A stretch of DNA of 64,000 nucleotides, from contig JAWKHU010000038.1 in the NCBI GenBank assembly GCA_041394685.1, forward strand, positions 130,087 to 194,086, given 5' to 3'. Position numbers and translations under genes: made by a program. The notes under the pieces are model-generated. The model searched no databases. It was not told where the DNA came from and worked only from the letters and a program-made list of their open reading frames with translations. Positions 15,326-57,926 of this stretch are shown here, one piece after another. Positions within the stretch are counted from its first letter, which is position 1. Each line of letters opens with the position of its first letter. The stretch is from Vicinamibacterales bacterium. GTDB taxonomy: Bacteria; Acidobacteriota; Vicinamibacteria; Vicinamibacterales; UBA2999.

Positions 15326-16746
15326 TCAGCGCACCATGCGGCGGATGACGCCGTCGCCCTTGTTGATCATGAGGATCTGATCGTCGAGCGCCGCGTTCAG
15401 CCGCAGGTCGGCGCGCGTGGCTGGCGTCTTGCCCTGCGCCGCGTTGGTCTCCTGAATCACCTGCAGGAACGTCCGGTCGCCGGCAGGCGTGCGCACGAGG
15501 ACGCGCCGAATGGGATCCTGGCCGCCTTCGGGCAAGTCGTCGGCGCTCACGTAGAACATCTCGCCGCTCGGGTTGTCGGTGAAGAGGACGCGGTTGGCGA
15601 CCTGCGGAATGGCCGTCCCGCGGTAGATCACCAGGCCGCATGCCGCCGACTGCGGCTGCAGCAGAGGGTCGAGCTGCCCGTACTCCGCGAACGGGAACGT
15701 CACCGCCGGATCGCCGCGGCGTCCCTCGGCCTCCACCGCCTGCCGGCCGACGAACTGTACGAGCCCTCCCAGACGTTCCAACCGAGGTTGCCGCCCTTCG
15801 GCACCAGCGTCACCTTCTCGACGATGTTCTGGCCGATGTCGGCGAGGAAGAGGTTTCGCGTCTTCGCGTCCCACGCGAAGCGCTGGCGTTGCGGATGCCG
15901 TAGGCATAGATTTCGGGAGGGCCCCGGCGCGGGCGACGAAGGGATTGTCCGACGGGATGCCGCACTGCGTCGCATGCCCGTTGGTCCCGAGCGGGTCGAT
16001 GCGGAACATCTTGCCGAACGCCGAGCCGAGGTTCTGCGCCATGTTGAACGGATCGCCGCCACTGCCGCCGTCGGCGATGGTGATGAGTAGGAGGCCCGCC
16101 TCGGTGCTTCCCGCCGCGGCCGTGGGATCGAACGCGAGGTGGCCGGCGTTGTGGTTGGCGAAGGGCTGCCGGATGCGGAAGAGCACGCGCGGCGGTCCGC
16201 CGTCGTAGGTGGCCGCGGACGGATCCTTCGCCGTCCACTCGAGGAGGACCGTGTCGTGGGTGGGCTTGTCGCCGCCGGCAGGCAGGAAGTCCGGTTCCGG
16301 CGTCATGTTCGACGTGTCGGTGAACGTGTAGAACCTGCCGTAGCCCGGAGCGCCGGCGCGCCCGAACTGCGGATGGAACGTGAAGCTCTGGAACCCGCGT
16401 TCGCGACCCGACGATTGCACGGGATGCCCCCACGCAGACGCGTTGGTGTCCACATATAGCGCCACCGAGGCGCCGTCGTAGCTGACGCTGTAGAGCGGTC
16501 CGCGCATGTCGTTGACGAAGAGGCGCCGGGTCGTAGTCTCGTCCACCAGGTTCATCATGCGCGCCGCGACACCGTCGATGTCGGGCAGCCGGGCGAACTC
16601 CGACACGCCGACGCGAATGACGTCCCGATCGGTCGCGATCGGTCCGGGGAACGGATCGTTGGTCTGCCCTGGCGCAGCGTGCCGGGCGCACGGACGAACG
16701 CGGCGGCGAGGAGCGCGGACAGGAGCCGGGTGAGTGCGATGGGCAT
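15326..16746 (-). pseudogene. PQQ-dependent sugar (glucose/sorbosone) dehydrogenase, secreted; four frame breaks as sequenced
   Basis: The signal peptide MPIALTRLLSALLAAAFVRA is in ORF 16555..16746. The body is in 15326..17077 (NDMRGPLYSV, FHPQF, RIRQPFANHNAGHLAFDP, ADGGSGGDPFNMAQN). The central part is in two other frames (EIYAYGIRNA; RFAWDAKTRNLFLADIGQNIVEKVTLVPKGGNLGWNVWEG). Confidence 0.7.
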
Positions 16747-16761
16747 GGGGGAGTTTAGTCT

Positions 16762-16844
16762 GGGGCGTGGGGCGGGGGCGTGGGGCGTGGGGCGTGGGAC
16801 CTGGGGCTTGGGGCTTGGGGCTTGGGGCTTGGGGCCTGGGACTT
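16762..16844 (+). repeat. Tandem G-rich 7-mer array (GGGGCGT then GGGGCTT), 12 G-tracts
   Basis: Read directly: GGGGCGT GGGGC GGGGGCGT GGGGCGT GGGGCGT GGGACCT GGGGCTT x4 GGGGCCT GGGACTT. It lies in the 161-bp divergent spacer between the dehydrogenase start (16746, minus) and the propeller-gene start (16908, plus). Confidence 0.9.
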
Positions 16845-16907
16845 GAGCTAAGCTCGGCGCTGGTTCGTCCGGGCGCGCGCCCCCCTCGCCTGCCTCTGGA
16901 GGTCCAC

Positions 16908-19889
16908 ATGTCTTGCCTTCTCCGGCGCCTGGCCGGCATCGTCTGGATGCTGGCGCTCGTTCCCCACCCGGCCCTCGCGCAGTACGCCGAGACCGCGCGA
17001 ACGCTGCCGGTCGCCGACGGGCTCGTGTACACCGGCACCCAGATCGGGTCGCGCCTCTTCATCGGCGGGACGTTCACGCACGTCGCGCCGCCAACCGGCG
17101 GCGCCGCGGTGTTCGACGACGCCGATCAGCCCGTTCCGGGTAACTGGCCCGTCATCGGCGGCACCATCTCGCGCATCATCCCGGACACACTCGGCGGGTG
17201 GGTGGCCGTGGGTTCGTTCACCACGGTGAACGGGCAGCCGCACGCGGGGCTCGTGCACGTGACGGGCGCCGGCGAGGTGGACCCGCGGTTCCGCATCGTG
17301 GCCGATGGAGGCATCTCGTCCGTGGCGCTGGCGCACGGACGCCTCTACCTTGCCGGGCCCTTCACCACCGTGAACGGCGCTCCGCGCCGCGGCCTGGCCG
17401 CGCTCGACGCCTCGTCGGGTGCGCTGTTGGCGTGGGGACAGGCCTTCCAGGCCTTCGACATCAGCTTCGTCGCCGCGCTGGTGACCTCGTCCACCGGCGT
17501 CTACGTGAGCCTGACGGGTGCGCCGGGCGGCGGAACCTGGGGGCTCGCGGCCAGTGACGGCCACGTGCTCTTCCACCTGCCCATCATCTACGGGGCCCTT
17601 GCGCCCACCTCGACGCGTCTCTACGCCGCCGGCTACGTCCCCGCCGTGCAGCAGAATCGCGTCGTCGTCCTCGATCCGCAGACGGGCGCCGTCGATCCCT
17701 CGTGGGTGTCGCCCGTCCGGTTCCAGACCATCAGTACTACCAGCGGCGACCGCACGTTCTTCTCCCGCATGATCCTCGACGGCGACACGCTCTACGTGGC
17801 GGGGGCGTTTCGGACCGCCGGGGCGAGCCGGCAACACCTGATGGCGCTGAGCGCGTCGAGCGGCGCGCTGCTGCCCTGGCAGCCGGACGCCGCGTTCAAT
17901 CCGAGCAACGGGGTGCGCGACATCGTCCTGCTGCCGTCGCAGGTCATCGCCGTACACGAGAGCATCGGGTTCCCGGGACCGCTGCACGACGTCACGACAT
18001 TCGATCGGGTGAGCGCCGCCGCGACCCCTCGGCTCCTGCCCGTCTTCGGCAACGTCGCCACCGTCGCCCCGGTGGCCGCCGGAGTCGTGGTCGGCGGCAG
18101 CTTCGGCGGGTTCGGCGGAGAGGCGCGCGCCCAGCTCGCGGCCATCGACCTGGACACCGGCCTGCTCGACGCGTGGGCCCAACCGGCCGGCTCGCCGGCC
18201 AGCGTGATCGTGCTCGCCACGGATGGCGCCGCGCTCTTCGCGTGCCGCGTCCGGGACGTGGGCGGCCTGCCGCAGCCGACGATCGACAAGCTCGATGCCG
18301 ACGACGGCCACGTCGTGGCATCGCTCGACCTCGGTGGGCCGCTGGCGACGGCGCTGCTGCAGATGCGGGCCGCGGGCGGCCGCCTCTACGTCTGGGGGCT
18401 CTTCGACAGCCTGGGCGGACAGAGCCGCACCGGGCTGGCGGCCATCGACATCGCGACGTGGACGGTCCTGCCCTGGGCGCCCGCCACGGACAACCGGGTC
18501 TTCGATCTCGACGTGGTGGGCAACACCGTCTACCTGGCAGGCCACTTCTCCACCATCGACGCCACGCCGCGGCCGGGCCTGGCCGCGATCGACGCAACGA
18601 CCGGCGCGCTCCTGCCGTGGAACCCCGACGCCGACACGGCGCGGTTCTCCGGCGTTCGCGTCCGTGCCGGCCGTGTCCTCGTGAGCGGGGACTTCCGCCG
18701 AATCTCGGCCGTGCGCCGACGAGGGTTTGCCGCGCTGGACCCGGTGACGGCGGACGCCGACGCGTGGAATCCCGACTCGCCACCAGGATTCCCACAGGGG
18801 ATCAACGGCTTCGCGCTGGATGCCGCAGGCATCCTCTACGCGATGGGCGGGTTCTCCACGATCGTCGGCGGTCAACCCTCGGTCGGGCTCTTCGCCCTGT
18901 CGTCCGAGACCGGCCTCCGGCTGCCATGGCAGCCGCCCGGTCCCCTCTCGCTGAGCCGCGCGTCGGCGCTCCCGAGCTGTCTGCTTCTCGTCAGCGTCTC
19001 CCGGGTCGAGACGCCAATCCTGAACAGCTACGCCTGCCTGCCACCGCTGCCGCCGCCCACGAACGTATCCGCCAGCCTCTCGGGCGCGACGGCAACGCTG
19101 TCGTGGACGCCACCAGCGGCGGATGTGACCGGGTACCGCATCGAGGTCGGGCGCGGCGCCGGGCAGCGCGACCTGGCCACCGTGGCCGTGGATGCGGGCA
19201 CGACATCCGCATCGGGCTCCCTGCCGGCCGGTTCGTACGTCGCACGCATCCGCGCGGTGCACGGCGAGGTCGCCAGCATGCCCTCACCCGACGTGAGCTT
19301 CGCGGTCGCGCCGCCGGATGTACCGGGCATCCCGCTGGATCTCTCCGTGGCCACCGAGGGTCAGCGCGTGCGGTTCTCGTGGCGCCCGCCGACGGTCGGC
19401 ACGCCCGCCGGGTACCTCCTGGAAGTCGGCGTGGCTCCGGGCCGCGCGGACTTCGCGTCGCTCACGCTCCCGCCGACGTCCACGTTCGAGGTGCCCACCG
19501 CACCAACCGGCATCTACTGGGCGCGTCTCCGCGCGATCAACGCAGCCGGCGCCAGCGGGCCGTCGAACGAAGTCGTGATCAACGTCGACGGCAGCGCCGC
19601 GCCCTGCTCGCTACCCCCACTCGCACCCGCCGGCCTGGCGGCCAGTGTCACCGCGCGCGTCGTCACCCTCACCTGGATACCGGCCACGACGGGCGCCGTC
19701 TCCAACGCGCAGCGCATCGTTGTCGGGTCGGCCTCGGGACTGGACAATCTCGGCGTGTTCGAAGTGGCGGGTCCGGCCACGACGTTCAGCGCACCGGCGC
19801 CGCCGGGCACGCACTTCGTTCGCGTCTACGGGTTCAACGCGTGCGGCGCAAGCCCGTTCAGCAACGAAGTGCAGGTGGTCGTCCCGTGA
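16908..19889 (+). CDS. Secreted beta-propeller repeat protein (DUF5122/delta-60-like repeats) with three C-terminal FN3 domains
   Basis: Intact ORF with likely start MSCLLRRLAGIVWMLALVPHPALAQ after a TGGAGG RBS. About 12 repeats of the pattern G.V.ALA..G.LY.GG.F..V.G..R.GLAA.D..TGALL.W. Three FN3 modules have the W..P...Y..EVG...G and G.Y.ARIRA.N..G.S.PS..V signatures. Confidence 0.8.
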   Translation: MSCLLRRLAGIVWMLALVPHPALAQYAETARTLPVADGLVYTGTQIGSRLFIGGTFTHVAPPTGGAAVFDDADQPVPGNWPVIGGTISRIIPDTLGGWVAVGSFTTVNGQPHAGLVHVTGAGEVDPRFRIVADGGISSVALAHGRLYLAGPFTTVNGAPRRGLAALDASSGALLAWGQAFQAFDISFVAALVTSSTGVYVSLTGAPGGGTWGLAASDGHVLFHLPIIYGALAPTSTRLYAAGYVPAVQQNRVVVLDPQTGAVDPSWVSPVRFQTISTTSGDRTFFSRMILDGDTLYVAGAFRTAGASRQHLMALSASSGALLPWQPDAAFNPSNGVRDIVLLPSQVIAVHESIGFPGPLHDVTTFDRVSAAATPRLLPVFGNVATVAPVAAGVVVGGSFGGFGGEARAQLAAIDLDTGLLDAWAQPAGSPASVIVLATDGAALFACRVRDVGGLPQPTIDKLDADDGHVVASLDLGGPLATALLQMRAAGGRLYVWGLFDSLGGQSRTGLAAIDIATWTVLPWAPATDNRVFDLDVVGNTVYLAGHFSTIDATPRPGLAAIDATTGALLPWNPDADTARFSGVRVRAGRVLVSGDFRRISAVRRRGFAALDPVTADADAWNPDSPPGFPQGINGFALDAAGILYAMGGFSTIVGGQPSVGLFALSSETGLRLPWQPPGPLSLSRASALPSCLLLVSVSRVETPILNSYACLPPLPPPTNVSASLSGATATLSWTPPAADVTGYRIEVGRGAGQRDLATVAVDAGTTSASGSLPAGSYVARIRAVHGEVASMPSPDVSFAVAPPDVPGIPLDLSVATEGQRVRFSWRPPTVGTPAGYLLEVGVAPGRADFASLTLPPTSTFEVPTAPTGIYWARLRAINAAGASGPSNEVVINVDGSAAPCSLPPLAPAGLAASVTARVVTLTWIPATTGAVSNAQRIVVGSASGLDNLGVFEVAGPATTFSAPAPPGTHFVRVYGFNACGASPFSNEVQVVVP

Positions 19890-20020
19890 CACGAAGGGCA
19901 CGAAGGGGAGAACACGAAGGGGGGCACGGAGGACACGAAGAGCACGAAGGGGACGAAGGGCACGGAGGGCACGGAGAGCACAGGGGGCGCGGAGGGCGCG
20001 GAGGGCTCGAGGGGATCGAG
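19890..20020 (+). repeat. Tandem purine-rich 9-mer array (CACGAAGGG family), about 14 units, decaying 3'-ward
   Basis: It starts on the nucleotide after the TGA stop (19887..19889): cacgaaggg cacgaaggg ... cacggagga cacgaagag cacgaaggg gacgaaggg cacggaggg cacggagag cacaggggg cgcggaggg cgcggaggg ctcgagggg atcgagcgt. Confidence 0.9.
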
Positions 20021-34698: not shown

Positions 34699-36624
34699 TC
34701 AGAAGACGTCCACGCGCATGTCGGCCGTCGCCGGACCGATGCCCGCCACGTTCATCGCCCGCACGCGCACGTAGTAGGTGCCCGGAGGCGCGTTGGCGGC
34801 CACCAGCGACTCCTGCGGCGTCATCATCGTGCCCACGTCCGTGAGACCGATCTGCGATCCCACCTCGACGATGTAGTTGTCAACGGGACCGCCGGCCGAT
34901 GGTGCCTGCCACGCAAGCGTGACGGTGCGGCCCGTCAGCAGGTGTGTGAGGCCGTCGGGCGCGCCCGGCGGGGCCACGCTGGTGGACAGGGTGACGGCGA
35001 CGTCGTTGGAGGGCGCACCGGTACCGCAGGCGTTGAGCCCGCGCACGCGCAGGTAATAGGTCCCCGGAGGGCCCGTCGCCACCAGCGCCGGCAGGCCACC
35101 GATGTTGCGGCGGCCGTGCTCGACGCCGCCCGGCGTGGCTCCCACTTCGAGCAGGTAGGCAGTGGCTCCAGGCGCGGCGCCCAGTGCGAGCGACATCTGC
35201 AGGCCGTCCACCGTGGCCGCCAGCGGTCCGGGCGCCTGCGGCTCCGACATGCACCCGGTAGCGCCCAGCGTCACCAGCAGCTCGCTCGATGGCGGGCCGA
35301 GCCCGTATGCGTTTCGTCCCCGCACGCGCACGTAGTAGGTGCCGGCCGGCGCGTCGGCGTCGAAGGTGGTCGCCGCTCCCGCCGTGGCCTGGACCAGCAG
35401 GTTGCTTGCTCCAGCCACCGACCCCGCCTCGATGATGTAGTCGGCCGGAAGGCCGCCGGTGGTCGGCGGCAGCCACGACAGCCGCACGCGGAACGTCGTT
35501 GCGGTTGGCGAGTCGCCCATGCGGGCGATGCGCCCCTGCGCAGGCTGGAGCTGGTCGAACCCGAACGTGCGAATCGCGAAGCCCCAGGCCGCGTCTGCAC
35601 CAGGCGCGGTCACCGCCGCATCGCCTTGCTGACCCGCGACGGCATAGGACAACAGGAGGGGCGCACCGGGCACGCGCGAGAAGGTGGGTGACGGCGTCGG
35701 CGTAGGTATTGGAGTCGCCGACGGCGTCGGCGTCGGTACGGGAGTCGCCGACGGCGTCGGTGTCGGCACCGGGCTGGCCGATGGCGTCGGTGTCGGCACC
35801 GGACTCGCCGATGGCGTCGGCGTCGGCACCGGACTCGCCGATGGCGTCGGCGTCGGCACCGGACTCGCCGATGGCGTGGGGGTCGGCACCGGACTCGCGG
35901 AGGGCGTCGGTGTAGGCACCGGGCTCGCTGACGGCGTCGGCGTCGGCGTGACGTCGAAGTGATTGAACACGAGCGCGGGGCCCGCCTGCCCACCGTTCTC
36001 GCGGGAGGCCAGGAACATGCCGCCGTCGCCGCTGGTGGTCGTCCGGCGGATCCGGAACGTCGTGGCGCCGCCGTTGACCAGGGCGGTGACGTCGAAGCTC
36101 AGCTCTCCCGGGCCGGTGTAGCCGCCCTCGGCGCCCGGGGGCGTCCCGGCCGCCGTGTTGTTGAAGGTCGCGTCTCCCTCCGTCTGCGTCGTCGAACACG
36201 CTTCGGCCGTGATTGTCTCGAACGTGGGCGTGAAGTCGATGACCACCTGCGTCACCAGCGTGACCTCGTCGGCCGGGCCGTAGGTGGACAGCAGGGTCGA
36301 GACGGCGGTGGGGTCGAAGATCACCAGCGCATCGGCGCTGTCGGCGCCCTGCACCTCCACCGTCAGCTGCCCGTCGGTGCCGAAGTTGGTATCGGGCTGG
36401 TCCGACCGCAGCGTGGTGTCGCCGGCCACGTCGATCTGCCGCAGGACGGCGTGCGCGGCCGTCACGCCGAAGAGCGGCCCCAGGGCCGCACCGCCGACGA
36501 TGCGACTGAGGTAGCTGACGCCGCCAGAGGCGGTGAAGCCGGTGCCGCCGACGAGCCGCTGCACGAAGCCGCGACGGGACAGCGGATAGCGAGGCCGGGG
36601 ATCGCCGGGGCCGGATGTCTCCAT
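34699..36624 (-). CDS. Tat-exported DNRLRE-domain protein with Pro/Thr/Ser decapeptide linker and three FN3 domains
   Basis: Intact 641 aa. Twin-arginine motif is [17 protein letters not shown]-like motif is [21 protein letters not shown]. There are nine [10 protein letters not shown] repeats. Three FN3 modules carry [13 protein letters not shown] signatures. Confidence 0.8.
35683..35949 (-). repeat. In-frame 30-bp tandem repeat x9 encoding (TPTPSA[ST]P[VI]P)n linker
   Basis: Read directly. Several units differ only by synonymous changes (gcgagt versus gccagc for Ala-Ser) while the peptide stays identical. Confidence 0.9.
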
Positions 36625-37312: not shown

Positions 37313-38194
37313 AGCTGCGGCTCGGCATTCCCAAGGGCTCGCTCGAGCAGGCCACCGTCCAGCTCTTCCAGCGGGCGGGCTTCCAGGTGCTGGTCTCGTC
37401 GCGCTCCTACTTCCCCTCCATCGACGACCCCGAGATCGAGTGCATGCTGATCCGCGCGCAGGAGATGGCCCGCTACGTGGCCGACGGCATCCTCGACGCG
37501 GGCCTCACCGGCTTCGACTGGATTCGCGAGCACGAGATCGGCCACCCCGAGCAACCACCGCTGGTGCCGTCGCCGACCTCATCTACTCGAAACAGAGCTT
37601 CGGCAAGGTGCGCTGGGTGCTGGCCGCGCCGGAGGCTCCCCGTTCCAGACGGCAAAGGACTTCGAGGGCAAGCGCATCGCGACCGAGCTGGTGCGCGTGA
37701 CACGCGACTACTTCCAGCGCCACGGCGTGAACGTGGACGTCGAGTTCTCGTGGGGCGCCACCGAGGTCAAGCCGCCCGTGCTGGCCGACGCCATCGTCGA
37801 GGCCACCGAAACCGGGTCCACCCTGCGGGCCAACCGGCTCCGCATCCTGGACACGATCCTGGAGTCCAACACCCAGCTGATTGCCAACGACACAGCCATG
37901 GCCGACGACTGGAAGCGGACGAAGATCGAGAACCTCGCACTGCTGCTCAAGGCCGCGATAGAGGCACAGGGCCGCGTGGGGCTGATGCTCAACGTGCCGA
38001 AGGCGAGCCTCGACGAGGTGCTGGGCCTGCTGCCCGCCCTGCAGCGGCCCACGGTGAGCGCGCTCAGCGACCCCGAGTGGGTGGCCGTCAACACCATCCT
38101 GGAAGAGAAGACCGCGCGCGACCTGATCCCCAAGCTGAAGGCCGCCGGCGGACAAGGCATCGTGGAGTATCCGCTGACGAAGATCGTCATGTAG
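37309..38194 (+). CDS. hisG: ATP phosphoribosyltransferase, long form (two single-base frame breaks near 37540 and 37640)
   Basis: The protein is [20 protein letters not shown]...[15 protein letters not shown], then [22 protein letters not shown], then [25 protein letters not shown]...GLMLNVPK...EYPLTKIVM. The length of 886 nt equals 888 minus 2. Confidence 0.8.
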
Positions 38195-38250
38195 GAATTC
38201 AGAAGTCAGAATTCAGAATTCAGAAGTCAGAACGGAGAAGGCGGAGCACA
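38195..38250 (+). repeat. Tandem 7-mer array filling the hisG-hisD spacer (GAATTCA/GAAGTCA family, 8 units)
   Basis: GAATTCA GAAGTCA GAATTCA GAATTCA GAAGTCA GAACGGA GAAGGCG GAGCACA, running from the base after the hisG TAG to the A of the hisD ATG. The decayed 3' units supply the hisD RBS (GGAGAAGG). Confidence 0.9.
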
Positions 38251-39551
38251 TGATCCGGGTCGTTCCTTCCACCAATCGCAGGGCCGTGACGGCGCTGCTG
38301 TCCTCCACGCGGGTGCGCGACCGTGTCACCGACCGCAAGGCGGCCGCGATCGTCGAGCGCGTGCGCGCGGGCGGAGACCAGGCGTTGCGTGCCTGCGTGC
38401 GGGAGTTCGACGGCGTGTCCGGACCGCTGGAGATTCCGCGGGCACGCTGGGCGGAGGAGGCCGCGTCGGTTCCCGACGCCGTGCGTGAGGCCATTCGCAC
38501 GGCCGCCCGCCACATCCACCGGGTGGCCCGCGCGCAGGTGCCGCGCGGGTGGCGCGTGCGCGTCGAGCGCGGCGTCACCGTGGAGCAGCGCGTGGTGCCG
38601 CTGTCGCGCGTGGGCTGCTATGTCCCGGCCGGCCGGTATCCGCTGCCGTCGTCGCTGCTGATGACGGCGCTGCCCGCCAGGGCGGCCGGTGTGCCCGAGG
38701 TGATCGTGGCGTGCCCGCGGCCGGACGCCACCGTGTTCGCCGCGGCCATCGAAGCCGGCGTGGACCGCGTCTTTCGGATGGGCGGCGCCCACGCGATTGC
38801 GGCCCTGGCCTACGGCACGCGGAGCGTGCCGCGGGTGGACAAGATCGTGGGGCCGGGCAATCGCTGGGTCTCGGCGGCCAAGTCGCTCGTCACCGCGGAC
38901 TGCGCCATCGACTTCTATGCGGGCCCGACCGAGATCCTCGTGCTCGCGTCGAAGACCCCGCCGGCGTGGGTGGCAGCCGATCTCATTGCCCAGGCCGAGC
39001 ACGATCCGGACGCCCGGGCCGTGTGCGTCACCACGAGCCAGGCGTACGCCAACCGGATCGCGGCCGAAGTGGCCGCCCAGCTCCCCGCCACCGGGCCCGC
39101 GGCCACCTCGCTGGCGCGCCACGGCGGCATCATCGTCGCGCGCTCCCAGCGGGAGGCCGTGGATCTCGCCAACCAGGCGGCTTCCGAGCACCTGGTCGTG
39201 GAGAGCGACGCCGTCGCGGAGCAGATCGTGAACGCGGGCGCGATATTCGTGGGGAGCTGGACCGCCCAGGTGGCGGGCGACTACGCCATCGGCTCGAACC
39301 ACGTGCTGCCGACGGCCGGCGCGGGACGCTACCGCGGCGGGCTGAACGCCGCGGACTTCGTGAAGCTGATCTCCGTGCAGCGCGCCACGGAGCGGGGCCT
39401 GCGGGCCATTGCCGGCGCCGTGACGACGCTGGCGCGAGCCGAGGGCCTGGAGGGACACGCTCGGTCCATCGACGTGCGCATGGGGACCGGCACGCCGCCA
39501 CGAGCCGCACGCGGGGCGCGCGCGACAGCAGGGACGGAGACGACGCGATGA
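38250..39551 (+). CDS. hisD: Histidinol dehydrogenase
   Basis: Intact 433 aa with motifs [27 protein letters not shown] and EGLEGHARS. Confidence 0.9.
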
Positions 39552-40625
39552 CGAGGATACAGGGAGTGCCCGACCTGGGACCTGGGCTCAGGCTGCACCT
39601 GAACGAGAACACCGGCGGCTGTTCGCCGCGCGTGGTGGAGGCCGTCCGCGGATTCACCGCGGAGCGCCTGGCGCTGTGCCCGGACTTCACCGACGCCGTC
39701 ATGGAAACGGCCGCCTTCCTCGGGGTGGACGCCGACCGCCTGGTGCTCACCAACGGGTTGGACGAGGGCATCCTGCTCGCGTCGATCGCCTACACGGTGC
39801 CGCGCGCGCCGGAAGCACTCGTCGAGCTCGGCGCCCCGCTCGTGGTGCTGTCGGGTGTGCCGGAGGTCGTCGTGGCGCTGCCGACCTTCGAGCCGTACTG
39901 CACGCAGCCAGGGGCATGGGGGCGCGCGTCGTCTCGGTGCCCGCCGCGCCCGACTACGCGTTTCCACTCGAGGGCATGCTGCGGGCCATCACGCCGAACA
40001 CGCGGCTCGTCTACGTGAACTCTCCGAACAACCCCACCGGCCAGGTGGTCCCCGCCGACGCCATTCGCGCGGTGGCGGCCGCGGCCGGCCACGCTCTGGT
40101 GTTCGTGGACGAGGCGTAGCCCACGACTTCGCCGGCGAGAACTTCCTCGCCGAGGCGGCCGCGTTCCCCAACGTGCTGATCGGACGGACGTTCTCGAAGG
40201 CGTTCGGCCTGGCGGGCATGCGCGTCGGGGTGATGGCGGCGTCGCCGGCCGTGCTGGAGCCCATCCGGCGCGTCATGCCGCTCTTCAACCTGAACGTGGT
40301 CGCCGTGGCGGCGCTGCGGGCGGCGTTGGCCGATCCCGACTACCGGGCGTGGTATCTCGAGCAGGCCGCGGCGTCGAAGGCCCTCGTCTACGAGACGTGC
40401 GAGCGCCTCGGTCTTCGCTGCTGGCCGAGCGCGGCCAACTTCGTCCTGATCGATGGCGGCGACCGGGCAAGAGCGCTCGTCGCCGGCCTGATCGCGCGCG
40501 GCGTGTTCGTTCGCGACCGCACCGCCGATCCCTCGTGCCCGAACTGCTTCCGGCTGACGGCCGGCGTGGTCGAGCACACCCGGCGTGCCGTGGAGGCACT
40601 GGAGGCCGTATGCGCCGCGGCGTGA
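39548..40625 (+). CDS. hisC: Histidinol-phosphate aminotransferase (two single-base frame breaks near 39900 and 40115)
   Basis: ATGA overlap with hisD. Pieces are [25 protein letters not shown], and in a third frame [15 protein letters not shown] (the PLP-Lys motif). The length of 1078 nt equals 1080 minus 2. Confidence 0.8.
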
Positions 40626-41197: not shown

Positions 41198-41829
41198 TTG
41201 CACTGGTCGACTACGGCGCCGGCAACCTTACCTCGGTGCGCAAGGCGCTCGGCGCCATCGGTGCGTCGTTCTGGACGCCCGCGGCGCCGTCGGAGATTGC
41301 CGATGCGGCAGCGGTGGTCGTACCCGGGGTCGGGCACTTCAGCGCCACAGCGGCGCTGGACGAACCGTGGCGCGACGCGATTCGACGCGCACTTGCCGGC
41401 GGACGCCCGCTGCTCGGCATCTGCGTCGGCCTGCAGTGGCTGTTCGACGGCTCCACCGAGGCGCCAGACGTCCCCGGTCTTGGCGTGGTCGCGGGCACGT
41501 GCCGCCACCTGGGCGACCGGGACCCGGACGCGCGGACGGATGCCGGCGCCGACGGACTGAAGATTCCGCACGTCGGCTGGAACGACCTCACGTTCCCTCG
41601 CCCCACGCGCCTGTTCGACGGCCTCGCCGATGGCACGCAGGTGTACTTCACGCACTCGTTCGCGGCGCCCGTGGTGGCCGCGACCGCGGCCGTCACCACT
41701 TACGGCGTCGCGTTCAGCGCCGCCGTCGAGGACGGCCTGGTGTCCGGCGTGCAGTTCCACCCCGAGAAGTCCGGCGACGCGGGGCTTCGCATCCTGCGCA
41801 ACTGGGCCGCTGATACGGGCCGCAGATGA
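41194..41829 (+). CDS. hisH: Imidazole glycerol phosphate synthase, glutamine amidotransferase subunit
   Basis: The GTG start overlaps the hisB stop (GTGA). Motifs are [33 protein letters not shown] and VQFHPEKSG. The stop TGA (41827..41829) lies inside the first repeat unit. Confidence 0.85.
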
Positions 41830-42149
41830 CGCAGATAGCGCAGATGGCGCAGGGGCCGCAGATGACGCAGATGGCGCAGGGGCCGCAGATGGCGCAGATG
41901 ACGCAGAGGAGGCAGAGGAGGCAGAGGCGGCAGAGGCGGCAGAGGAACCTCGGGAGGGGACTCGAGGCGGCCAGGACCTCTCTGTCGGCTCCACATGCAT
42001 TGATGACGATGACGCCTACGCCCTCACCCTCTGGTCTTGATCCGTGGCATCCGTGGCATTCGCGCCCTCTGCGCTATCTGCGTCATCTGCGGCCTCCGCG
42101 CCCTCTGCGGCCTCTGTGCCATCTGCGGCCTCTGCGCCATCTGCGGCTC
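41822..42149. repeat. Inverted-arm tandem 9-mer element filling the hisH-hisF spacer (14 units, ~92-nt core, 12 inverted units)
   Basis: The left arm at 41822..41947 is GCAGATGAC GCAGATAGC GCAGATGGC GCAGGGGCC ... GCAGAGGCG GCAGAGGAA. The right arm at 42042..42149 is CCGTGGCAT CCGTGGCAT TCGCGCCCT CTGCGCTAT CTGCGTCAT CTGCGGCCT ... CTGCGCCAT CTGCGGCTC, the reverse-complement family. It is the same family as 7242..7385. Confidence 0.9.
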
Positions 42150-42163
42150 CAGGGATCGCGCTG

Positions 42164-42928: not shown

Positions 42929-43644
42929 TTCCGTCCATCGACCTCCAGAACGGCCGCGTCGTGCAGCTCGTGCAGGGCGAGACGCTGGCCATTGCGAGCG
43001 ATGACATCGATGCCTGGATCGCGAAGTTCTCGCGCTTCCCGAAGGTGCAGCTCATCGATCTCGACGCCGCGATGTCCCGCGGCAACAACGATGCACTCGT
43101 GCGGCGGATCGCGGCCGTCCTGCCCTGCCGCGTCGGCGGCGGCGTGCGCACGGTGGGCCGCGCCGAGGAACTGCTGGCGGCGGGCGCGCAGGCGGTCATT
43201 GCCGGGTCGGGCCTCTTCCGCGGACCGGGCCAGTGGGGCGATGCGTCCGGCGGGGCGCCGCCGCCTGCCGCGGTGGTCAACCACGAGTTCGCCGAGGCGC
43301 TCGCCACCACCGTGGGTGCCGATCGCGTGATCGCCGCGGTGGACGCGCGCGGCGGCCGCGTGGTCATTCATGGGTGGAAGACGGCGCTTCCATTGAGCCC
43401 GGTGGACGCGGTGCAGCTACTGGACCGCCACTGCGGCGAGTTCCTCTACACGCACGTGGACAAGGAAGGGCTGATGCAGGGCACCGACATGGACGCCATC
43501 CGCGCGGTGCGCGACGCGACGAGCCGCCGCGTCACCGCGGCCGGGGGCATCACCACGCAGGAGGAAATCGCCGCCCTCGACGCCCTCGGCGTCGACGCGG
43601 TCGTCGGGATGGCGATCTATACGGGCACATTGGCGGTCGATTGA
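42922..43644 (+). CDS. hisA: HisA-type ProFAR isomerase (HisA/HisF family TIM barrel)
   Basis: The start overlaps the hisF end. Sequence is MLIPSIDLQNGRVVQLVQGE, then LIDLDAA, GGGVRT, YTHVDKEGLMQG and AAGGITT. 240 aa. Confidence 0.8.
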   Translation: MLIPSIDLQNGRVVQLVQGETLAIASDDIDAWIAKFSRFPKVQLIDLDAAMSRGNNDALVRRIAAVLPCRVGGGVRTVGRAEELLAAGAQAVIAGSGLFRGPGQWGDASGGAPPPAAVVNHEFAEALATTVGADRVIAAVDARGGRVVIHGWKTALPLSPVDAVQLLDRHCGEFLYTHVDKEGLMQGTDMDAIRAVRDATSRRVTAAGGITTQEEIAALDALGVDAVVGMAIYTGTLAVD

Positions 43645-43646
43645 CT

Positions 43647-43681
43647 TTCTTAATTCTGAATTCTGAATTCTGAATTCAGAA
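43647..43681. repeat. Tandem 7-mer array, inverse orientation (TTCTGAA family, 5 units) ending in a 14-bp perfect palindrome
   Basis: TTCTTAA TTCTGAA TTCTGAA TTCTGAA TTCAGAA, starting 2 nt after the hisA TGA. The palindrome TTCTGAATTCAGAA is at 43668..43681. It lies between convergent genes. Confidence 0.9.
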
Positions 43682-44250
43682 GCGCCCCTGACCGCCTCGC
43701 TGAGCGTATCGAGCAGCACCTGATCGCGGGCTTCGGCACGGTCACCGGGCTGCGCGCCCCACGTTTCGTCCAGCGCCGTCATGGTCCTCGCGACGCATCC
43801 CGCGTCGCAGGGCGCCAGCCCCCGCTGCGTGCTGAGCGAAGAGGCCCGGGCGGAAAGGGCGGCGAACCAACGGTCGAACAGCGACGTCTCGTATTCGGCG
43901 GAGCGGTTGCCCGGCTCCCACTTCAGGAGCCGATCCATGGCCTGGACGACCTGCGGGTCCACGGGCTTGCGCTTGCTGAGCGTGACCGAGAACACGGTCG
44001 TCGGCTGGCCGGTGAACGGCGAGTTGGGCGCGCCGCCGCCGACCTGGGTGTCCACGGGCGCCTCGACGCGCTGCTTGACGTCCTCGAGCAGCGGGATGAT
44101 GGCGCGCGCGGCGTCGGTACGTGCAGCCAGCGTTGCGGTATCCACCTCGATCGGCGTCGGTTGCTGGGCCCGGGCGCGGGTGGCCAGGGGCGCTGCTGCC
44201 AGGGCGATGAACGCCGCGATCGTGATGGTCGAGACGGATGGCTGCCTCAT
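43655..44250 (-). CDS. Hypothetical secreted protein (3' end uncertain)
   Basis: The start is MRQPSVSTITIAAFIALAAAPLATRARAQQ (signal peptide). The ORF formally runs to 43417 through the 7-mer array and 228 nt antisense into hisA, which looks non-coding. The true stop is probably at or just after the repeat. Confidence 0.45.
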
Positions 44251-44342
44251 GCGTGAGCTCCTGACTTCCACTACACCATGATTTGGCAGGCCGGGGAAGA
44301 GAGACGGATCGAGGAGACGAGGCCCGCGGGTAGAATCCGCGG

Positions 44343-45089
44343 GTGGCCGTCGGCTACCGCCCGCTCCTGCAGACACAGCGCGACCTCTACGCCCTTCCGC
44401 GAGACCTGTCGCGGTTCCGCGCCTACCTTGCCACGCTGCGCGATGAGGCGACCGGCGAGATGGCGCTCCCGCTGTCGGCGATGAACCCCATGGGCAAGGA
44501 CCACGTGCCCGCGCTGCTGGACGCGTATCTCGCGCTCGGGGCCGACGACATCGGCGCCCGCGCCGCCGCGGAGGCCGGCGCTGTATCCGCCAGCGAACCC
44601 GGAGCGGTGGAGGCCACCCTGGTCGTCTCCGACGACCTGCACGGCGGCTGGACGAATCGGTGGGCCAGCGAGTTCGGCCATCGATTCGAGTGCCAGGCCA
44701 TGATCACGCGCGGATGGGCAGTGGGCATCCTGTGGACGTCCGAGCCGGCATCGGCCGACGCGGCCCGTCGGGCGGTGCTGACCGCCATCCACCGGTTCGC
44801 CTACGTCCGCGCCCACGGGACGCCGACGACGCTGCGGGACATGCTCGCGCAGGAGGGCCACGTGATGGCACTCGGAGAGGACGCCACTCCCCGTCTCGAC
44901 GCCGAGGACCTGGCCTACACACGCGAGGTGATTGGCCCCCACCTCGACGCCACGGATCGCGCCACGCAGATGGCGTGCTGCTTCGGCGACGCCTGCGCCC
45001 GCGCACTGGGTTACGACCCCATGGGGCTGTCGGACCGCGCGGGCTTCGCGCTGGCCCTGGCCGACTACGCCGCGGTCCGATCGCGATAG
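44343..45089 (+). CDS. Conserved-looking hypothetical protein
   Basis: Intact 248-aa ORF with GC3-rich codon usage and a balanced composition. No family recognised. Confidence 0.55.
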   Translation: MAVGYRPLLQTQRDLYALPRDLSRFRAYLATLRDEATGEMALPLSAMNPMGKDHVPALLDAYLALGADDIGARAAAEAGAVSASEPGAVEATLVVSDDLHGGWTNRWASEFGHRFECQAMITRGWAVGILWTSEPASADAARRAVLTAIHRFAYVRAHGTPTTLRDMLAQEGHVMALGEDATPRLDAEDLAYTREVIGPHLDATDRATQMACCFGDACARALGYDPMGLSDRAGFALALADYAAVRSR

Positions 45090-54564: not shown

Positions 54565-55101
54565 ATGAAGAGTGTTCTGATGCGGTCCTGCGGTGCGGTG
54601 GTTGGCGCCGCGGTGCTGGTGTGGTCGATGTCGGGTGCGGCCAGTGCGCAGATGGGGGGCGGCAAGGCCGAACTCAAGGATGCGAAGGGGGCAACGGTCG
54701 GCACGGCCACCCTCACCGACACGCCCAACGGCGTGCTCATCCACCTGATGTTGACGAGCGGGCCGGCCGGCACGCACGCCTTCCACGTCCACGCCGTCGG
54801 CAAGTGCGAGGCCCCGGGCTTCACCTCCGCGGGCGGCCACTTCAACCCGGCGGGCGTCCCCCACGGGATCGAGGTGAAGGGCGGCGGCCACGCGGGTGAC
54901 CTGCCCAACATCCACGTCCCCGCCGACGGGAAGCTCGACGTCGAGATCCTGGCGCGCGGCACGACCCTGTCGGGCGGCAGCAACGCCATCATGGATGCCG
55001 ATGGCGGCGCGCTGGTGATTCATGCCACCGGCGACGACTACAAGACCGACCCCTCCGGCGCGGCCGGCGATCGCCTCGCCTGCGGCGTCGTCATGAAGTA
55101 G
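54565..55101 (+). CDS. sodC: Periplasmic Cu/Zn superoxide dismutase
   Basis: A signal peptide is followed by HAFHVHAVGKC, GGHFNP, HAGDLPN and DPSGAAGDRLACGVV. Confidence 0.9.
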   Translation: MKSVLMRSCGAVVGAAVLVWSMSGAASAQMGGGKAELKDAKGATVGTATLTDTPNGVLIHLMLTSGPAGTHAFHVHAVGKCEAPGFTSAGGHFNPAGVPHGIEVKGGGHAGDLPNIHVPADGKLDVEILARGTTLSGGSNAIMDADGGALVIHATGDDYKTDPSGAAGDRLACGVVMK

Positions 55102-55122
55102 CGCGCGGTCGAACCACGGCGA

Positions 55123-55144
55123 GCCGGGACGTCCTTGTCCCGGC
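55123..55144 (+). terminator. GC hairpin after sodC (no U-tract; weak terminator candidate)
   Basis: GCCGGGAC-gtcctt-GTCCCGGC, 22 nt downstream of the sodC stop. Confidence 0.3.
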
Positions 55145-55223
55145 CGCCAACTCCCTACCCAGAGCAAAGCCGGCTCGGAACCCGTATTCGACACGGGACT
55201 TGACGTCAGGGAACTGCAGGCTG

Positions 55224-55261
55224 TATTGTCGCGTATAGCTAATTAGCCGGTCGCGACAATA
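55224..55261 (+). promoter_or_regulatory. Nested palindromes abutting the ArsR-family gene start: candidate autoregulatory operator
   Basis: TATTGTCGCG (55224..55233) and CGCGACAATA (55252..55261) form a perfect 10-bp inverted repeat. They flank an inner palindrome GCTAATTAGC. The region is an AT-rich island ending 1 nt before the ATG at 55263. Confidence 0.6.
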
Positions 55262-55262
55262 C

Positions 55263-55610
55263 ATGACAGACCAACTGAGCCTGACCTTCGCCGCGCTTGC
55301 CGATCCCACCCGGCGCGGCATCCTCGCCCGCCTGGCGGACGGCGACGCCACCGTGAACGAGCTCGCCGAGCCCTTCGACCTCACGCTCCCCACCGTGTCC
55401 AAGCACCTCAAGGTGCTGCAACGGGCCGGACTGGTGACGCAGACGCGCAAGGCCCAGTGGCGGCCCTGCCACCTGGAGCCGGCCCCGCTCAAGGACGTGG
55501 CCGACTGGGTGGACCGCTACCGCCGCATGTGGGACAGCCGCTTCGAACAGCTCGACGCCTTCCTCGTCGAGCTCGCACGAAAGGAGACCAACGATGAACG
55601 CCAGCGCTAG
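55263..55610 (+). CDS. ArsR/SmtB-family transcriptional regulator
   Basis: FAALADPTRRGILARLADGDATVNELAEPFDLTLPTVSKHLKVLQRAGLV is a winged helix-turn-helix. Confidence 0.85.
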   Translation: MTDQLSLTFAALADPTRRGILARLADGDATVNELAEPFDLTLPTVSKHLKVLQRAGLVTQTRKAQWRPCHLEPAPLKDVADWVDRYRRMWDSRFEQLDAFLVELARKETNDERQR

Positions 55611-56115
55611 TCAGCAGAGCGATACGCGCCACGTGGGCGCGATGTCCATCAGGGTGCGGTCCGACCTCGAGATCGAGATGCGCCGCACGTTTGCCTTCCC
55701 CCGCCGCCTCGTCTTCGAGGCGCACAGCAAGCCGGAGTACATCAGTCGCTGGTGGGGACCGCGCGGCAGCGAACTCATCAGCTGCGACATGGACTTTCGC
55801 CCGGGCGGCGCGTGGCGCTTCGTGGTCGGGAAGCCCGGCGGGCAGCAGTACGCGTTCCGCGGCGAGTACAAGGAAGTCGTCCCGCCCGAGCGCCTCGTCT
55901 ACACCTTCGAGTTCGAGGGCATGCCCGGATCGATCACCGTGGACGCGATCACCTTCACCGAGCACGAGGGGCACACCACGCTCACCTGCGTCAGCCGGAT
56001 GGACTCGATCGAAGCCCGCGACGCCATGCTGGCCTCCGGCATGGAGAAAGGCGCGGCCGAAACCTACGACCGGCTGGAGGAAATGCTCGGGGGGATCTCG
56101 GGGAATTCAGAATGA
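55594..56115 (+). CDS. SRPBCC / Aha1-domain protein
   Basis: It overlaps the arsR-like gene by 17 nt. Sequence pieces are FAFPRRLVFEAHSKPEYISRWWGP, GGAWRFV and YKEVVPPERLVYTFEFEG. Confidence 0.8.
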   Translation: MNASASQQSDTRHVGAMSIRVRSDLEIEMRRTFAFPRRLVFEAHSKPEYISRWWGPRGSELISCDMDFRPGGAWRFVVGKPGGQQYAFRGEYKEVVPPERLVYTFEFEGMPGSITVDAITFTEHEGHTTLTCVSRMDSIEARDAMLASGMEKGAAETYDRLEEMLGGISGNSE

Positions 56116-56216
56116 AGAAGTCAGAATTCAGAAGGGCCGTTGGCCGACCTCGGCTTTGTGCCTTTTGCCTTCTGCCTTCTTGATTTCGGCATTCTGCATT
56201 CTGAATTCTGAATTCC
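56103..56216. repeat. Inverted-arm tandem 7-mer element (GAATTCA/GAAGTCA family)
   Basis: The left arm is GAATTCA GAATGAA GAAGTCA GAATTCA GAAGG (56103..56135) and contains the SRPBCC stop codon. After a ~25-nt core comes the right arm CCTTTTG CCTTCTG CCTTCTT GATTTCG GCATTCT GCATTCT GAATTCT GAATTCC (56161..56216). The outer ends GGGAATTC...GAATTCCC are complementary. Confidence 0.9.
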
Positions 56217-56233
56217 CAGCAGGAGCACACGCG

Positions 56234-56734
56234 ATGCAGATGACCGAATTCTTCCTGACCACGTTCGACCGCGAAGTCGAGCGCAGCCGGCATGCACTTC
56301 AACAATTTCCCTCGGGCAAGCGCGACTGGAAGCCGCACGACAAGTCCATGCCGTTCGGCTACCTCTCGGACATCGTGGCCACGATCCCGTCGTGGTTCGC
56401 GATGATGATCACCCGGGACGAGCTCGACATCGCGCCGAAGGACGGCCAGTCCTCCGGCCGCCGCCGAGCCAGACCGCGGATGAGTTCGTGGCCGCGCTGG
56501 ACACGGCGGCCGCGGAGGCGCGGGCCGCGATCCGGCACGACCGACGCCCACCGGCCACCACGTGGCGGCTGCTGGCGGGCGACGTCGCGGCCGAGCAGCC
56601 CCGCTACGAGATGATCCAGACACCTTCGGCCACTGGGCACATCATCGCGGTCAGATGACGGTTACCTGCGGCTGCTCGGGGCCACGGTGCCCGCCATCTA
56701 CGGTCCCTCGGCCGACGACCGCCGCTTCGCCTGA
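56234..56734 (+). pseudogene. DinB-family protein, about 3 frame breaks as sequenced
   Basis: The sequence is MQMTEFFLTTFDREVERSRHALQQFPSGKRDWKPH...IPSWFAMMITRDELD, then in other frames ADEFVAALDTAAAEARAAI, and DTFGHWAHHRGQMTV...PAIYGPSADDRRFA-TGA (56732..56734). Confidence 0.55.
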
Positions 56735-56786
56735 TCTTCCGCCCGGTGCGCCTCGGCTACACTCTCCCCCAACAGCCGGAGGCCCG

Positions 56787-57926
56787 ATGACCGAGTCACG
56801 ACGTCCCATCAGCCGCCGCCGCTTCGGCGCCACCGTTGGCGCCGGAGCGGGCGCCCTCCTCGCCGCGTCCCGCCCGGGCGCCGCGCAGTCCTCGCAGGCG
56901 GACGGCTCCGTCTACACCCGCGGCATCGTCATCGACGCGCTGGCGAACCCGGGGTCGATGAACGTGTCGTGGCCACCCCGGGGACCGCTCTCGCCCACCC
57001 AGCGCGAAGCCATCCGCTCGTCGGGCATCACCGCCATCAACGTCACCGTCAGCGCCGACGACTTCGAGACGACGACGCGCAACATCGCCCTGCCACAGGG
57101 CGAGGCCGACCGCTATCCCGACCTGCTGTCGGTCGTGCGGCGCCACGCGGACATCGCCCGCGCGAAGGCCGACGGCACCCTCGGGTTGATCCTGGGATTC
57201 CAGAACACCGAGATGCTCGGCCGCGACCTGTCACGCGTGGACGTCTTCTACCGGCTCGGCATCCGCATCATCCAGCTCACCTACAACGATCGCAACCTGC
57301 TGGGCGACGGCTGCCTCGAACCCGGCAACGCCGGCCTCAGCCGCTACGGCCACGAGGTGGTTGAGCGGATGAACAGCCTCGGCATCGCGGTGGACCTGAG
57401 CCACTGCGGCACCCGGACGACGGCCGACGGGATCGCGGCCTCGACGAAGCCTCCGCTCATCACCCACAGCGGCTGCCGCGAGGTCTACCGACACCCGCGG
57501 AGCAAGGAAGACCGGGAGCTGAAGGCGATGGCCGACAAGGGCGGCGTGGTGGGCATCTACTTCATGCCCTTCATCGGGCCCGGGCCAGGGGCGCCATCCG
57601 TCGAGATGCTGATGCGCCAGATCGATCACGCCATCTCGGTGTGCGGCGAGGACCACGTCGGCATCGGCAGCGACCTCAGCACCGCGCCGATCGAGGAGAC
57701 GCCGGAATACCTGGCCGAGGCGCGGCGCTTCGTGGACGGCCGCAAGGCGCGCGGGATCTCGGCCCCGGACGAGGACCGGCCGCTCTTCATCGCCGAGCTC
57801 AATCACTCGCGCCGCATCGAGGGCGTCGCGCGCGGCCTGCAGCAGCGCAAATACGCCCCGGCGGTGATCGAGAAGATCATCGGCGGCAACTTCCACCGCG
57901 TGTTCAAGGAGATCTGGACACTCTGA
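56787..57926 (+). CDS. M19 family membrane dipeptidase, Tat-exported
   Basis: Tat motif is SRRRFGATVGAGAGALL. Family motifs are IIQLTYNDRNLLGDG, VDLSHCG, ITHSGCREV and GIGSDL. Confidence 0.85.
   Translation: MTESRRPISRRRFGATVGAGAGALLAASRPGAAQSSQADGSVYTRGIVIDALANPGSMNVSWPPRGPLSPTQREAIRSSGITAINVTVSADDFETTTRNIALPQGEADRYPDLLSVVRRHADIARAKADGTLGLILGFQNTEMLGRDLSRVDVFYRLGIRIIQLTYNDRNLLGDGCLEPGNAGLSRYGHEVVERMNSLGIAVDLSHCGTRTTADGIAASTKPPLITHSGCREVYRHPRSKEDRELKAMADKGGVVGIYFMPFIGPGPGAPSVEMLMRQIDHAISVCGEDHVGIGSDLSTAPIEETPEYLAEARRFVDGRKARGISAPDEDRPLFIAELNHSRRIEGVARGLQQRKYAPAVIEKIIGGNFHRVFKEIWTL

Follow-up and report, generated by a model that had tools for sequence, protein, structure and literature searches.

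The 64,000-nt stretch of DNA analyzed here (the window), which comes from a soil Vicinamibacterales bacterium of the phylum Acidobacteriota, contains at positions 56101–56217 an element that spans the entire intercistronic spacer between two co-directional genes, an SRPBCC/AHSA1-family gene and a DinB-family gene, in the string of genes arsR-SRPBCC-dinB. The element is a palindromic, or 'hairpin-form', long simple-sequence repeat of the bacterial intergenic heptanucleotide tandem-repeat class. It is built of five GAAKTCA-type 7-mers, a core and eight inverted 7-mers, and chance does not account for it. As to its origin and action, the account that is favored here, with somewhat better than even confidence, is that the element was made by slippage, that it is transcribed within the operon and that it would form an mRNA hairpin resembling a repetitive extragenic palindrome (REP), with coupling of translation across the spacer. 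The selected effect of such a hairpin is probably small.

The element is composed of the following parts:

56101–56135, plus strand: left (5′) arm, GG GAATTCA GAATGAA GAAGTCA GAATTCA GAAGG, purine-rich, 35 nt
56101–56135, plus strand: coding content of the left arm, the final SRPBCC codons, N S E
56113–56115, plus strand: TGA stop codon of the SRPBCC gene, inside the left arm and supplied by its variant second unit, GAATGAA
56136–56160: core, 25 nt, 68% GC
56142–56155: mini-hairpin in the core, GGCCG-ACCT-CGGCT, 5 bp, then TTTGTG
56161–56217, plus strand: right (3′) arm, CCTTTTG CCTTCTG CCTTCTT GATTTCG GCATTCT GCATTCT GAATTCT GAATTCCC, pyrimidine-rich, 57 nt

The division of both arms into these units had been proposed in an earlier reading of the letters, made without database searches, and agrees with the sequence by string equality. 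Tandem Repeats Finder (TRF) places period-7 arrays at 56116–56134, 56154–56203 and 56191–56215, and by both approaches the element contains at least three head-to-tail copies of a 7-nt unit. That sequence-only reading was equally right in stating that the left arm holds the last codons and the TGA of the upstream gene, and that the outermost 8 nt, GGGAATTC and GAATTCCC, are fully complementary; they pair perfectly within an outer helix of 13 bp. Its span started at the correct base but ended at 56218, where the last base is in fact 56217, and the short gap that it described between the right arm and the next ATG measures 16 nt (ATG at 56234) rather than 17 nt. A repeat finder recovers the inverted arms as 33 nt with 82% complementarity or as 42 nt with 74%, depending on the register. 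The arms are unequal (35 vs. 57 nt; 5 vs. 8 units), and the unit sequence of the right arm shifts stepwise from the core outwards, from CCTTTTG through CCTTCTG, CCTTCTT, GATTTCG and GCATTCT to GAATTCT. The AT-rich composition that had been noted earlier is clear from the GC content, which is 47.9% for the element (left arm 40%, right arm 44%) against 70.8% for the window.

RNA of the plus strand folds into one long imperfect hairpin with a minimum free energy (MFE) of −50.2 kcal/mol (z −2.95). The same holds for RNA of the minus strand (MFE −47.1 kcal/mol, z −3.5), and the DNA fold of the element has a z of −3.55. When the order of the units is shuffled, the observed fold energy is reached in 17.5% of the cases for both arms and in 60% for the right arm only. 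As arms with shuffled unit orders give folds that are as stable, the stem is independent of the register, and a fine-tuned pairing of the arms can be ruled out. The repeats as such depart strongly from chance: six period-7 segments are present in the window, compared to 0.12 expected from Markov-1 simulations. Moreover, 10 of the 12 GAATTC sites in the window fall in three GAATTCA arrays.

Besides the element itself, the window contains two arrays of the same unit family and one hairpin of the same layout that is built of 9-mers, all of them beside his genes:

38195–38239, plus strand: GAATTCA/GAAGTCA array of ~6 units without an inverted partner, in the hisG–hisD spacer
43647–43681, minus strand: GAATTCA ×5 array, bordered by a His_biosynth-family gene whose last base is 43645 and by a minus-strand open reading frame (ORF) convergent to it
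41821–42147, plus strand: 9-mer hairpin, (CGCAGATGR)n with a 115-nt core and an inverted array, 327 nt, in the hisH–hisF spacer

The first array follows the hisG TAG (38192–38194) without a gap and leaves 10 nt to the hisD ATG (38250). The likeness between the 7-mer and the 9-mer elements, which the earlier reading had described as array, core and inverted array, is real and extends to their placement: the hisH stop codon TGA lies within the first unit of the 9-mer element, and 16 nt separate the end of its right arm from the hisF ATG (42164), with AGGGA at 42152 in between. Its fold is very stable (MFE −216 kcal/mol, z −8.5). The two elements are independent of each other, and each extends exactly from a stop codon to a point shortly ahead of the ribosome-binding site that follows. 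The 9-mer hairpin sits in a biosynthetic operon, and the products of the flanking hisH and hisF genes make up one enzyme. Arrays of identical or related units are spread over the non-coding DNA of this genome, at a frequency far above chance: those at 38195–38239 and 43647–43681 share the unit of the element, and an array at 16761–16840 consists of another 7-mer. A census of GAAKTCA arrays had been proposed earlier, with a lack of further copies as part of the grounds for dismissing the element; copies were found at these two places in the window as well as in many other bacteria.

The genes and signals around the element are the following:

55200–55229: promoter-like site, the single one in the region, 5′ of the ArsR-type gene
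55263–55610, plus strand: ArsR-type helix-turn-helix regulator gene, preceding the SRPBCC gene
55594–56115, plus strand: SRPBCC/AHSA1-family gene, upstream of the element, its start overlapping the end of the ArsR-type gene
56221–56225, plus strand: Shine–Dalgarno-like AGGAG, 3 nt after the end of the right arm, read from the sequence
56234–56236, plus strand: downstream ATG, 16 nt after the end of the right arm
56234–56735, plus strand: DinB-family gene, downstream of the element, with at least three frameshifts and spread over three reading frames

No promoter-like site was found between the element and the dinB ATG when positions 55000–57000 were scanned, and the gap between the right arm and dinB is too small for a promoter. 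The SRPBCC protein ends in ...LEEMLGGISGNSE, while homologs end in ...LEELLASLGA or similar; it is 2–3 residues longer than these at its C-terminus, the N-S-E end being encoded by the array. Regarding dinB, the family named in the earlier reading is correct, as the stitched frames match Pfam DinB (PF05163, E 3.7e-10, residues 11–162), but the gene is not intact in the assembly. Either dinB is a pseudogene or the assembly carries indel errors; the coding frame also switches in the presumed hisC region (39500–40600), which suggests the latter. With an indel-rich assembly or with pseudogenes, the repeat unit counts in the window may be slightly off.

According to the favored account, replication slippage would have expanded 7-nt units on either side of a small pre-existing stem-loop, an origin to which the outward drift of the units and the unequal unit gain of the two arms (5 vs. 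8) both point. The element would be transcribed within a polycistronic arsR-SRPBCC-dinB mRNA; its sister elements between hisG and hisD and between hisH and hisF are internal to an operon and must therefore be transcribed through. The mRNA is predicted to fold into a long imperfect stem-loop that may act like an enterobacterial REP, blocking 3′-to-5′ exonuclease decay of the upstream cistrons, and that might also be a substrate for a double-strand RNase. Each ribosome terminating at the embedded TGA would have to melt the hairpin. In addition, the hairpin could hold stop and start codon close in space, which would make initiation at dinB dependent on translation of the upstream gene. Because any repeat register pairs, such a stem would tolerate changes in copy number.

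Comparison with related loci indicates that the element is a feature of one lineage rather than a conserved part of this operon. The nearest SRPBCC ortholog in the databases (79% amino acid identity) has no array after its stop codon and is followed by a different downstream gene. In 80 metagenomic loci with SRPBCC homologs (≤65% identity, 287 kb), two minimal 7-mer arrays were found, neither of them after the gene. These 287 kb are virtually devoid of 7-mer and 9-mer arrays, compared to the 64 kb of the window with its six period-7 segments and long 9-mer arrays. The absence of the array at the homolog loci marks the element as a lineage-specific addition, and it appears to be a fast-evolving feature and not a conserved regulator of these genes.

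A scan of 185,579 species genomes for three consecutive GAAKTCA units returned at least 120 loci; the counts of hosts, polarity and stop codons that follow, here and below, hold among the matches listed. The hosts comprise Nostoc, Okeania, Moorena and Crocosphaera, many Acidobacteriota including another member of the Vicinamibacterales, as well as Bacteroidota, Verrucomicrobia, Planctomycetes, Nitrospirota, Clostridia and Alphaproteobacteria, and the loci have GC contents of 27–71%. An inverted partner no more than 250 nt away accompanies 27 of 125 perfect arrays (~25 distinct elements), and it always lies 3′ of the purine-rich GAAKTCA arm (27:0), as seen in Cyanobacteria (14:0) and in Acidobacteriota (7:0); gapped direct partners are few. 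Scored across Cyanobacteria, Acidobacteriota and other groups, the purine-rich arm is 5′ in every hairpin pair. Hairpins in viral contigs have the same polarity, both for GAAGTCA (2:0) and for the unrelated heptamer GTGACAA (3:0).

The arrays also show a marked relation to stop codons, whose recording had been suggested by the sequence-only reading. In the element the stop codon lies within the left arm. Among 71 single intergenic arrays, 20 are located within 30 nt after a stop codon on the same strand and 4 after an antisense stop, while 2 are beside an antisense start and none is before a sense start. For other heptamers that adjoin stop codons, the sense strand is purine-rich in 35 of 46 cases, and G exceeds C in 35 vs. 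10. Two further observations concern individual hosts. In Nostoc, hairpins with near-identical ends occur across loci and strains (L006, L019, L024, L043, L058, L061 and L086), with ...TGAAGAA GAATTCAGAAGTCAGAATTCAGGAGTCAGAAT on the left, ATTCTGACTCCTGACTCCTGAATTCTGTTYGAT on the right and variable, structured cores in between. These hairpins look like a dispersed, possibly mobile, family, and a copying mechanism may exist for them. In a locus of the Vicinamibacterales genome Fu_MAG_63 (L034, 4282–4321), a CTTCTGA array, the antisense form of the unit family, occupies a spacer of co-directional genes, with 14 nt left between its end and the ATG downstream; this is the rarer layout, with a pyrimidine-rich array before a start codon, in the same order.

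Several of these results weigh against slippage and hairpin function as a complete explanation. Single arrays of the same unit family without a hairpin exist (98 of the 125), so that the hairpin cannot be the sole reason for the arrays. The strict polarity, with the purine-rich arm first, is not predicted by neutral slippage. Hairpins between co-directional genes are more stable on the sense strand in 8 cases and on the antisense strand in 5, a split that gives no clear sign of a strand bias or of selection acting on the RNA. Furthermore, 29 distal arrays are within one mismatch of GAAKTCA, compared to 5 expected with composition-matched units, and in viral contigs GAAGTCA ×3 is ~5-fold commoner than four permuted controls (56 stretches vs. 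2, 16, 6 and 18, i.e., 3–28 times). There is thus a slight sequence preference for GAAKTCA, beyond slippage alone. The idea of one universal motif is nonetheless weakened, as all four permuted heptamers form ×3 arrays and GAATTCA ×3, with 9 stretches, is no commoner than the controls; the heptamer 'vocabulary' is broad.

Other explanations compete with the favored one. The main rival, although unlikely, is that the element serves as a non-canonical terminator or attenuator of transcription in both directions. The A- and purine-rich 5′ arm, the GC-rich core hairpin and the U- and pyrimidine-rich 3′ arm would then mimic an A-tract, a stem and a U-tract, and the stem would close while RNA polymerase is on a weak hybrid of pyrimidine RNA and purine DNA (rY:dR), in either direction of transcription. 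The invariable 5′ position of the purine-rich arm (27:0, and 3:0 in the case of GTGACAA) would be explained, since with no other order would the weak hybrid lie beneath the hairpin as it closes. The mini-hairpin of the core, followed by TTTGTGCCTTTTG, and the adjoining of arrays to stop codons are consistent with it as well. In addition, canonical terminator-like sites are rarer than chance in positions 1–60000 of the window, with 5 called vs. ~14 expected from shuffled sequence; these positions give no indication of classical intrinsic terminators, and the genome may therefore use other signals. However, no terminator-like site is called in 55000–57000, and the combination of GC-rich stem, short loop and adjoining U-tract that marks an intrinsic terminator is not present in the element, of which the core stem has only 5 bp and its tail reads TTTGTGCC. 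The position is not that of the end of a transcription unit either: the 3′ arm ends 16 nt before an ATG and 3 nt before a Shine–Dalgarno-like sequence, without space for a promoter, and sister elements occur within the his operon. The hisH–hisF spacer shows the same geometry and the hisG–hisD spacer holds a single array; efficient termination at these places would silence essential genes. The related repeats of Xanthomonas are mostly transcribed through (PMC4692102), and a hairpin is lacking in the majority of the arrays (98 of 125). For these reasons, namely the lack of a called site, the 16-nt gap with its Shine–Dalgarno-like sequence and the operon-internal sister elements, the bidirectional termination implied by the earlier reading is not supported. 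Avoidance of C-rich sites for the loading of Rho was considered as a general cause of the polarity and rejected, as the polarity is equally strict in Cyanobacteria, which are not known to possess Rho.

Alternatively, the tandem units might each be recognized, on DNA or mRNA, by a trans-acting protein, e.g., ribosomal protein S1, a cold-shock protein or a nucleoid protein, with the hairpin being incidental. This is improbable, despite the occurrence of the same heptamer in many phyla and across genomes of 27–71% GC, the clustering of distal arrays around GAAKTCA, the excess of GAAGTCA ×3 over its permuted controls and the fixed orientation relative to stop codons; the authors who described the TAACTGA repeats (PMC4679880) and Nostoc heptamers (10.1101/2022.06.06.494920) likewise propose an unidentified binding partner. 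The units within the element are highly degenerate (GAATTCA, GAATGAA, GAAGTCA, GAAGGCA and CAAAAGG), the window also uses the unrelated units CGCAGATGR, CACGAAGGG and TGGGGCG, every control heptamer forms arrays, GAATTCA ×3 shows no excess at all, and the arrays are not linked to any candidate gene. Insertion after the SRPBCC gene of a mobile element resembling a miniature inverted-repeat transposable element (MITE) or a REPIN, with terminal inverted repeats built of heptamers, is scarcely probable. Such repeats are present, since the termini GGGAATTC and GAATTCCC are perfectly complementary in the 13-bp outer helix, and a transposed unit would be expected to have a fixed arm polarity, as observed; the near-identical ends of the Nostoc hairpins at several loci and the nearest ortholog without the element also fit. 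Nevertheless, the core occurs only once in the window (≤3 mismatches allowed) and was found in none of 201 loci, and there is no target-site duplication, as the flanks, ...GATCTCG and AGCAGGAG..., contain no direct repeat; on these two grounds the MITE interpretation was rejected. The arms are, moreover, unequal and internally tandem, the same units form single arrays nearby, and no transposase or REP-associated tyrosine transposase (RAYT) gene was seen adjoining the element. An artifact of a low-quality, indel-rich metagenome-assembled genome is extremely improbable. While the frameshifts in dinB (at least three) and the frame switches in the hisC region mean that unit counts could be slightly wrong, indel errors do not make ordered inverted arrays, and over 100 independent assemblies, isolate genomes among them, contain the same units and architecture.

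Few unexplained repeats are as common in bacterial genomes as heptanucleotide arrays, and the present locus, in itself ordinary for its class, offers an Acidobacterial case of clean geometry, with a stop codon inside one arm and a Shine–Dalgarno sequence just after the other. Together with the survey it yields two rules for any functional or mutational model, i.e., that a sense purine-rich array comes right after the stop codon and that the purine-rich arm comes first. Geometry and polarity rules are concrete handles for experiments. If the rules reflect function, these arrays would provide a cheap and evolvable tuning of expression inside operons; if slippage and purifying selection alone stand behind them, the finding is ordinary. 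A bolder generalization, speculative and rather doubtful, is that palindromic heptamer and nonamer arrays form a general class of polarity-constrained RNA/DNA elements at gene ends, acting as register-independent 'zipper' terminators or insulators or as coupling devices opened by ribosomes. They might stand in where canonical terminators are lacking, and might be built by a dedicated mechanism rather than by neutral slippage.

Four other repeats occur in the window:

19890–20014: (CACGAAGGG)n, ~14 units, directly following the TGA that closes a stop-to-stop ORF of 1051 codons (16734–19889)
16761–16840: TGGGGCG/TGGGGCT array, ~11 units of a G-rich heptamer, in a divergent spacer
7238–7369: 9-mer array, CGCAGATGG ×14, in frame in a minus-strand ORF
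35690–35947: 30-nt tandem repeat, 8.6 copies with 89% identity, GACGGCGTCGGCGTCGGCACCGGACTCGCC, probably a coding repeat

The (CACGAAGGG)n array fills the spacer up to a convergent gene, without an inverted partner. The TGGGGCG array is flanked by the start of a minus-strand gene (~16746) and a plus-strand start (16908), and it has the potential to form G-quadruplexes, as in published repeats of Xanthomonas and Nostoc. The ORF that holds the array at 7238–7369 begins at ~7457 with the signal-peptide-like MHRPPLPIVALVLAVSG. If translated, this array gives a Cys-rich 'AICAICVPC' stretch; alternatively, it may be a 5′ untranslated region with the true start located downstream. The 30-nt repeat is unrelated to the 7-mers and 9-mers. 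Arrays also affect gene annotation. The minus-strand ORF at 43417–44376, convergent to the His_biosynth-family gene, has a good GC content at third codon positions and reads unbroken through the GAATTCA array (…RGASEFRIQNSELRKS…), after which it is antisense to the his gene. As forward-oriented arrays are stop-free in every frame, gene callers extend ORFs through them, and the stop-free sense strand contaminates gene calls with pseudo-peptides of the 'SEFRIQN' or 'PSAFCLL' type.

Enterobacterial REPs and bacterial interspersed mosaic elements (BIMEs), treated by Newbury (1987) and by Liang, Rudd and Deutscher (2015), are reportedly extragenic palindromes located after stop codons and inside operons. 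They are said to be transcribed, to stabilize upstream cistrons through mRNA stem-loops and, when within ~15 nt of a stop codon, to hinder termination. REPs are conserved 35–40-nt units copied by RAYT transposases. The element resembles them only in its proposed action and is not a member of the family, as it has no conserved unit beyond the 7-mer, no second copy of the core and no linked transposase. Apart from the 7-mers and 9-mers, no conserved palindromic unit was found in the 64-kb window. Rfam gave no matches in the window at gathering thresholds, and in E-value mode only chance-level matches of ≤17 bits around the element. A CRISPR array is ruled out, since the units are contiguous and without spacers.

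Among the published heptamers, the GGGAATC and GGGGA(C/T)T repeats of Xanthomonas and Nostoc (Rehm et al., 2015; PMC4692102) share the co-directional spacers and the inverted copies capable of forming stem-loops. The Xanthomonas GGGAATC repeats prefer co-directional spacers, where they lie ≤50 bp after a sense-strand stop codon or overlap it; inverted copies occur too, most repeats are transcribed, and their length differs between close relatives (PMC4692102). In contrast to GAAKTCA, these units are G-rich, form G-quadruplexes and favor four units; a G-quadruplex interpretation does not apply to GAAKTCA, which has no G-tracts. The TAACTGA repeats of Beggiatoaceae, Cyanobacteria and Bacteroidetes (MacGregor, 2015; PMC4679880) are likewise intergenic heptamers common to distant phyla, for which a post-transcriptional role has been proposed. 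They differ in being mostly direct repeats just 5′ of start codons and in that the unit itself holds stop codons (PMC4679880). For the Nostoc heptamers, a preprint from 2022 describes the role as speculative and the partner as unidentified (10.1101/2022.06.06.494920). A structural counterpart in the literature is the P6b of the Nostoc trnL intron, a hairpin of which both arms consist of degenerate heptanucleotide repeats that pair mutually, and which varies by unit number and by non-repeat apical inserts (PMC3488679). That hairpin lies inside a group I intron and not between protein genes, and its unit sequences are different (PMC3488679).

In the literature searched, no paper was found that describes GAAKTCA arrays or such repeats in Acidobacteriota. 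The element has close relatives in the short tandemly repeated repetitive sequences (STRRs) of Cyanobacteria, first described by Mazel in 1990, and in the 'long simple sequence repeats' of Mrazek (2007), as both are summarized in PMC4679880 and PMC4692102. According to these summaries, heptamers are the commonest class of the latter, and polymerase slippage is their proposed origin. The likeness comprises tandem 7-nt units in ~3–20 copies, the intergenic location, many arrays per genome with several types of unit, a patchy distribution over lineages and the proposed slippage. The present host differs in being a 71%-GC member of the Vicinamibacterales (Acidobacteriota), in which 9-mer arrays of the same layout coexist. 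The GAAKTCA unit itself forms a link to the STRRs, as it is present in many Nostoc, Okeania and Moorena genomes among the matches listed. Altogether, the locus is an Acidobacterial example of an already published repeat class.

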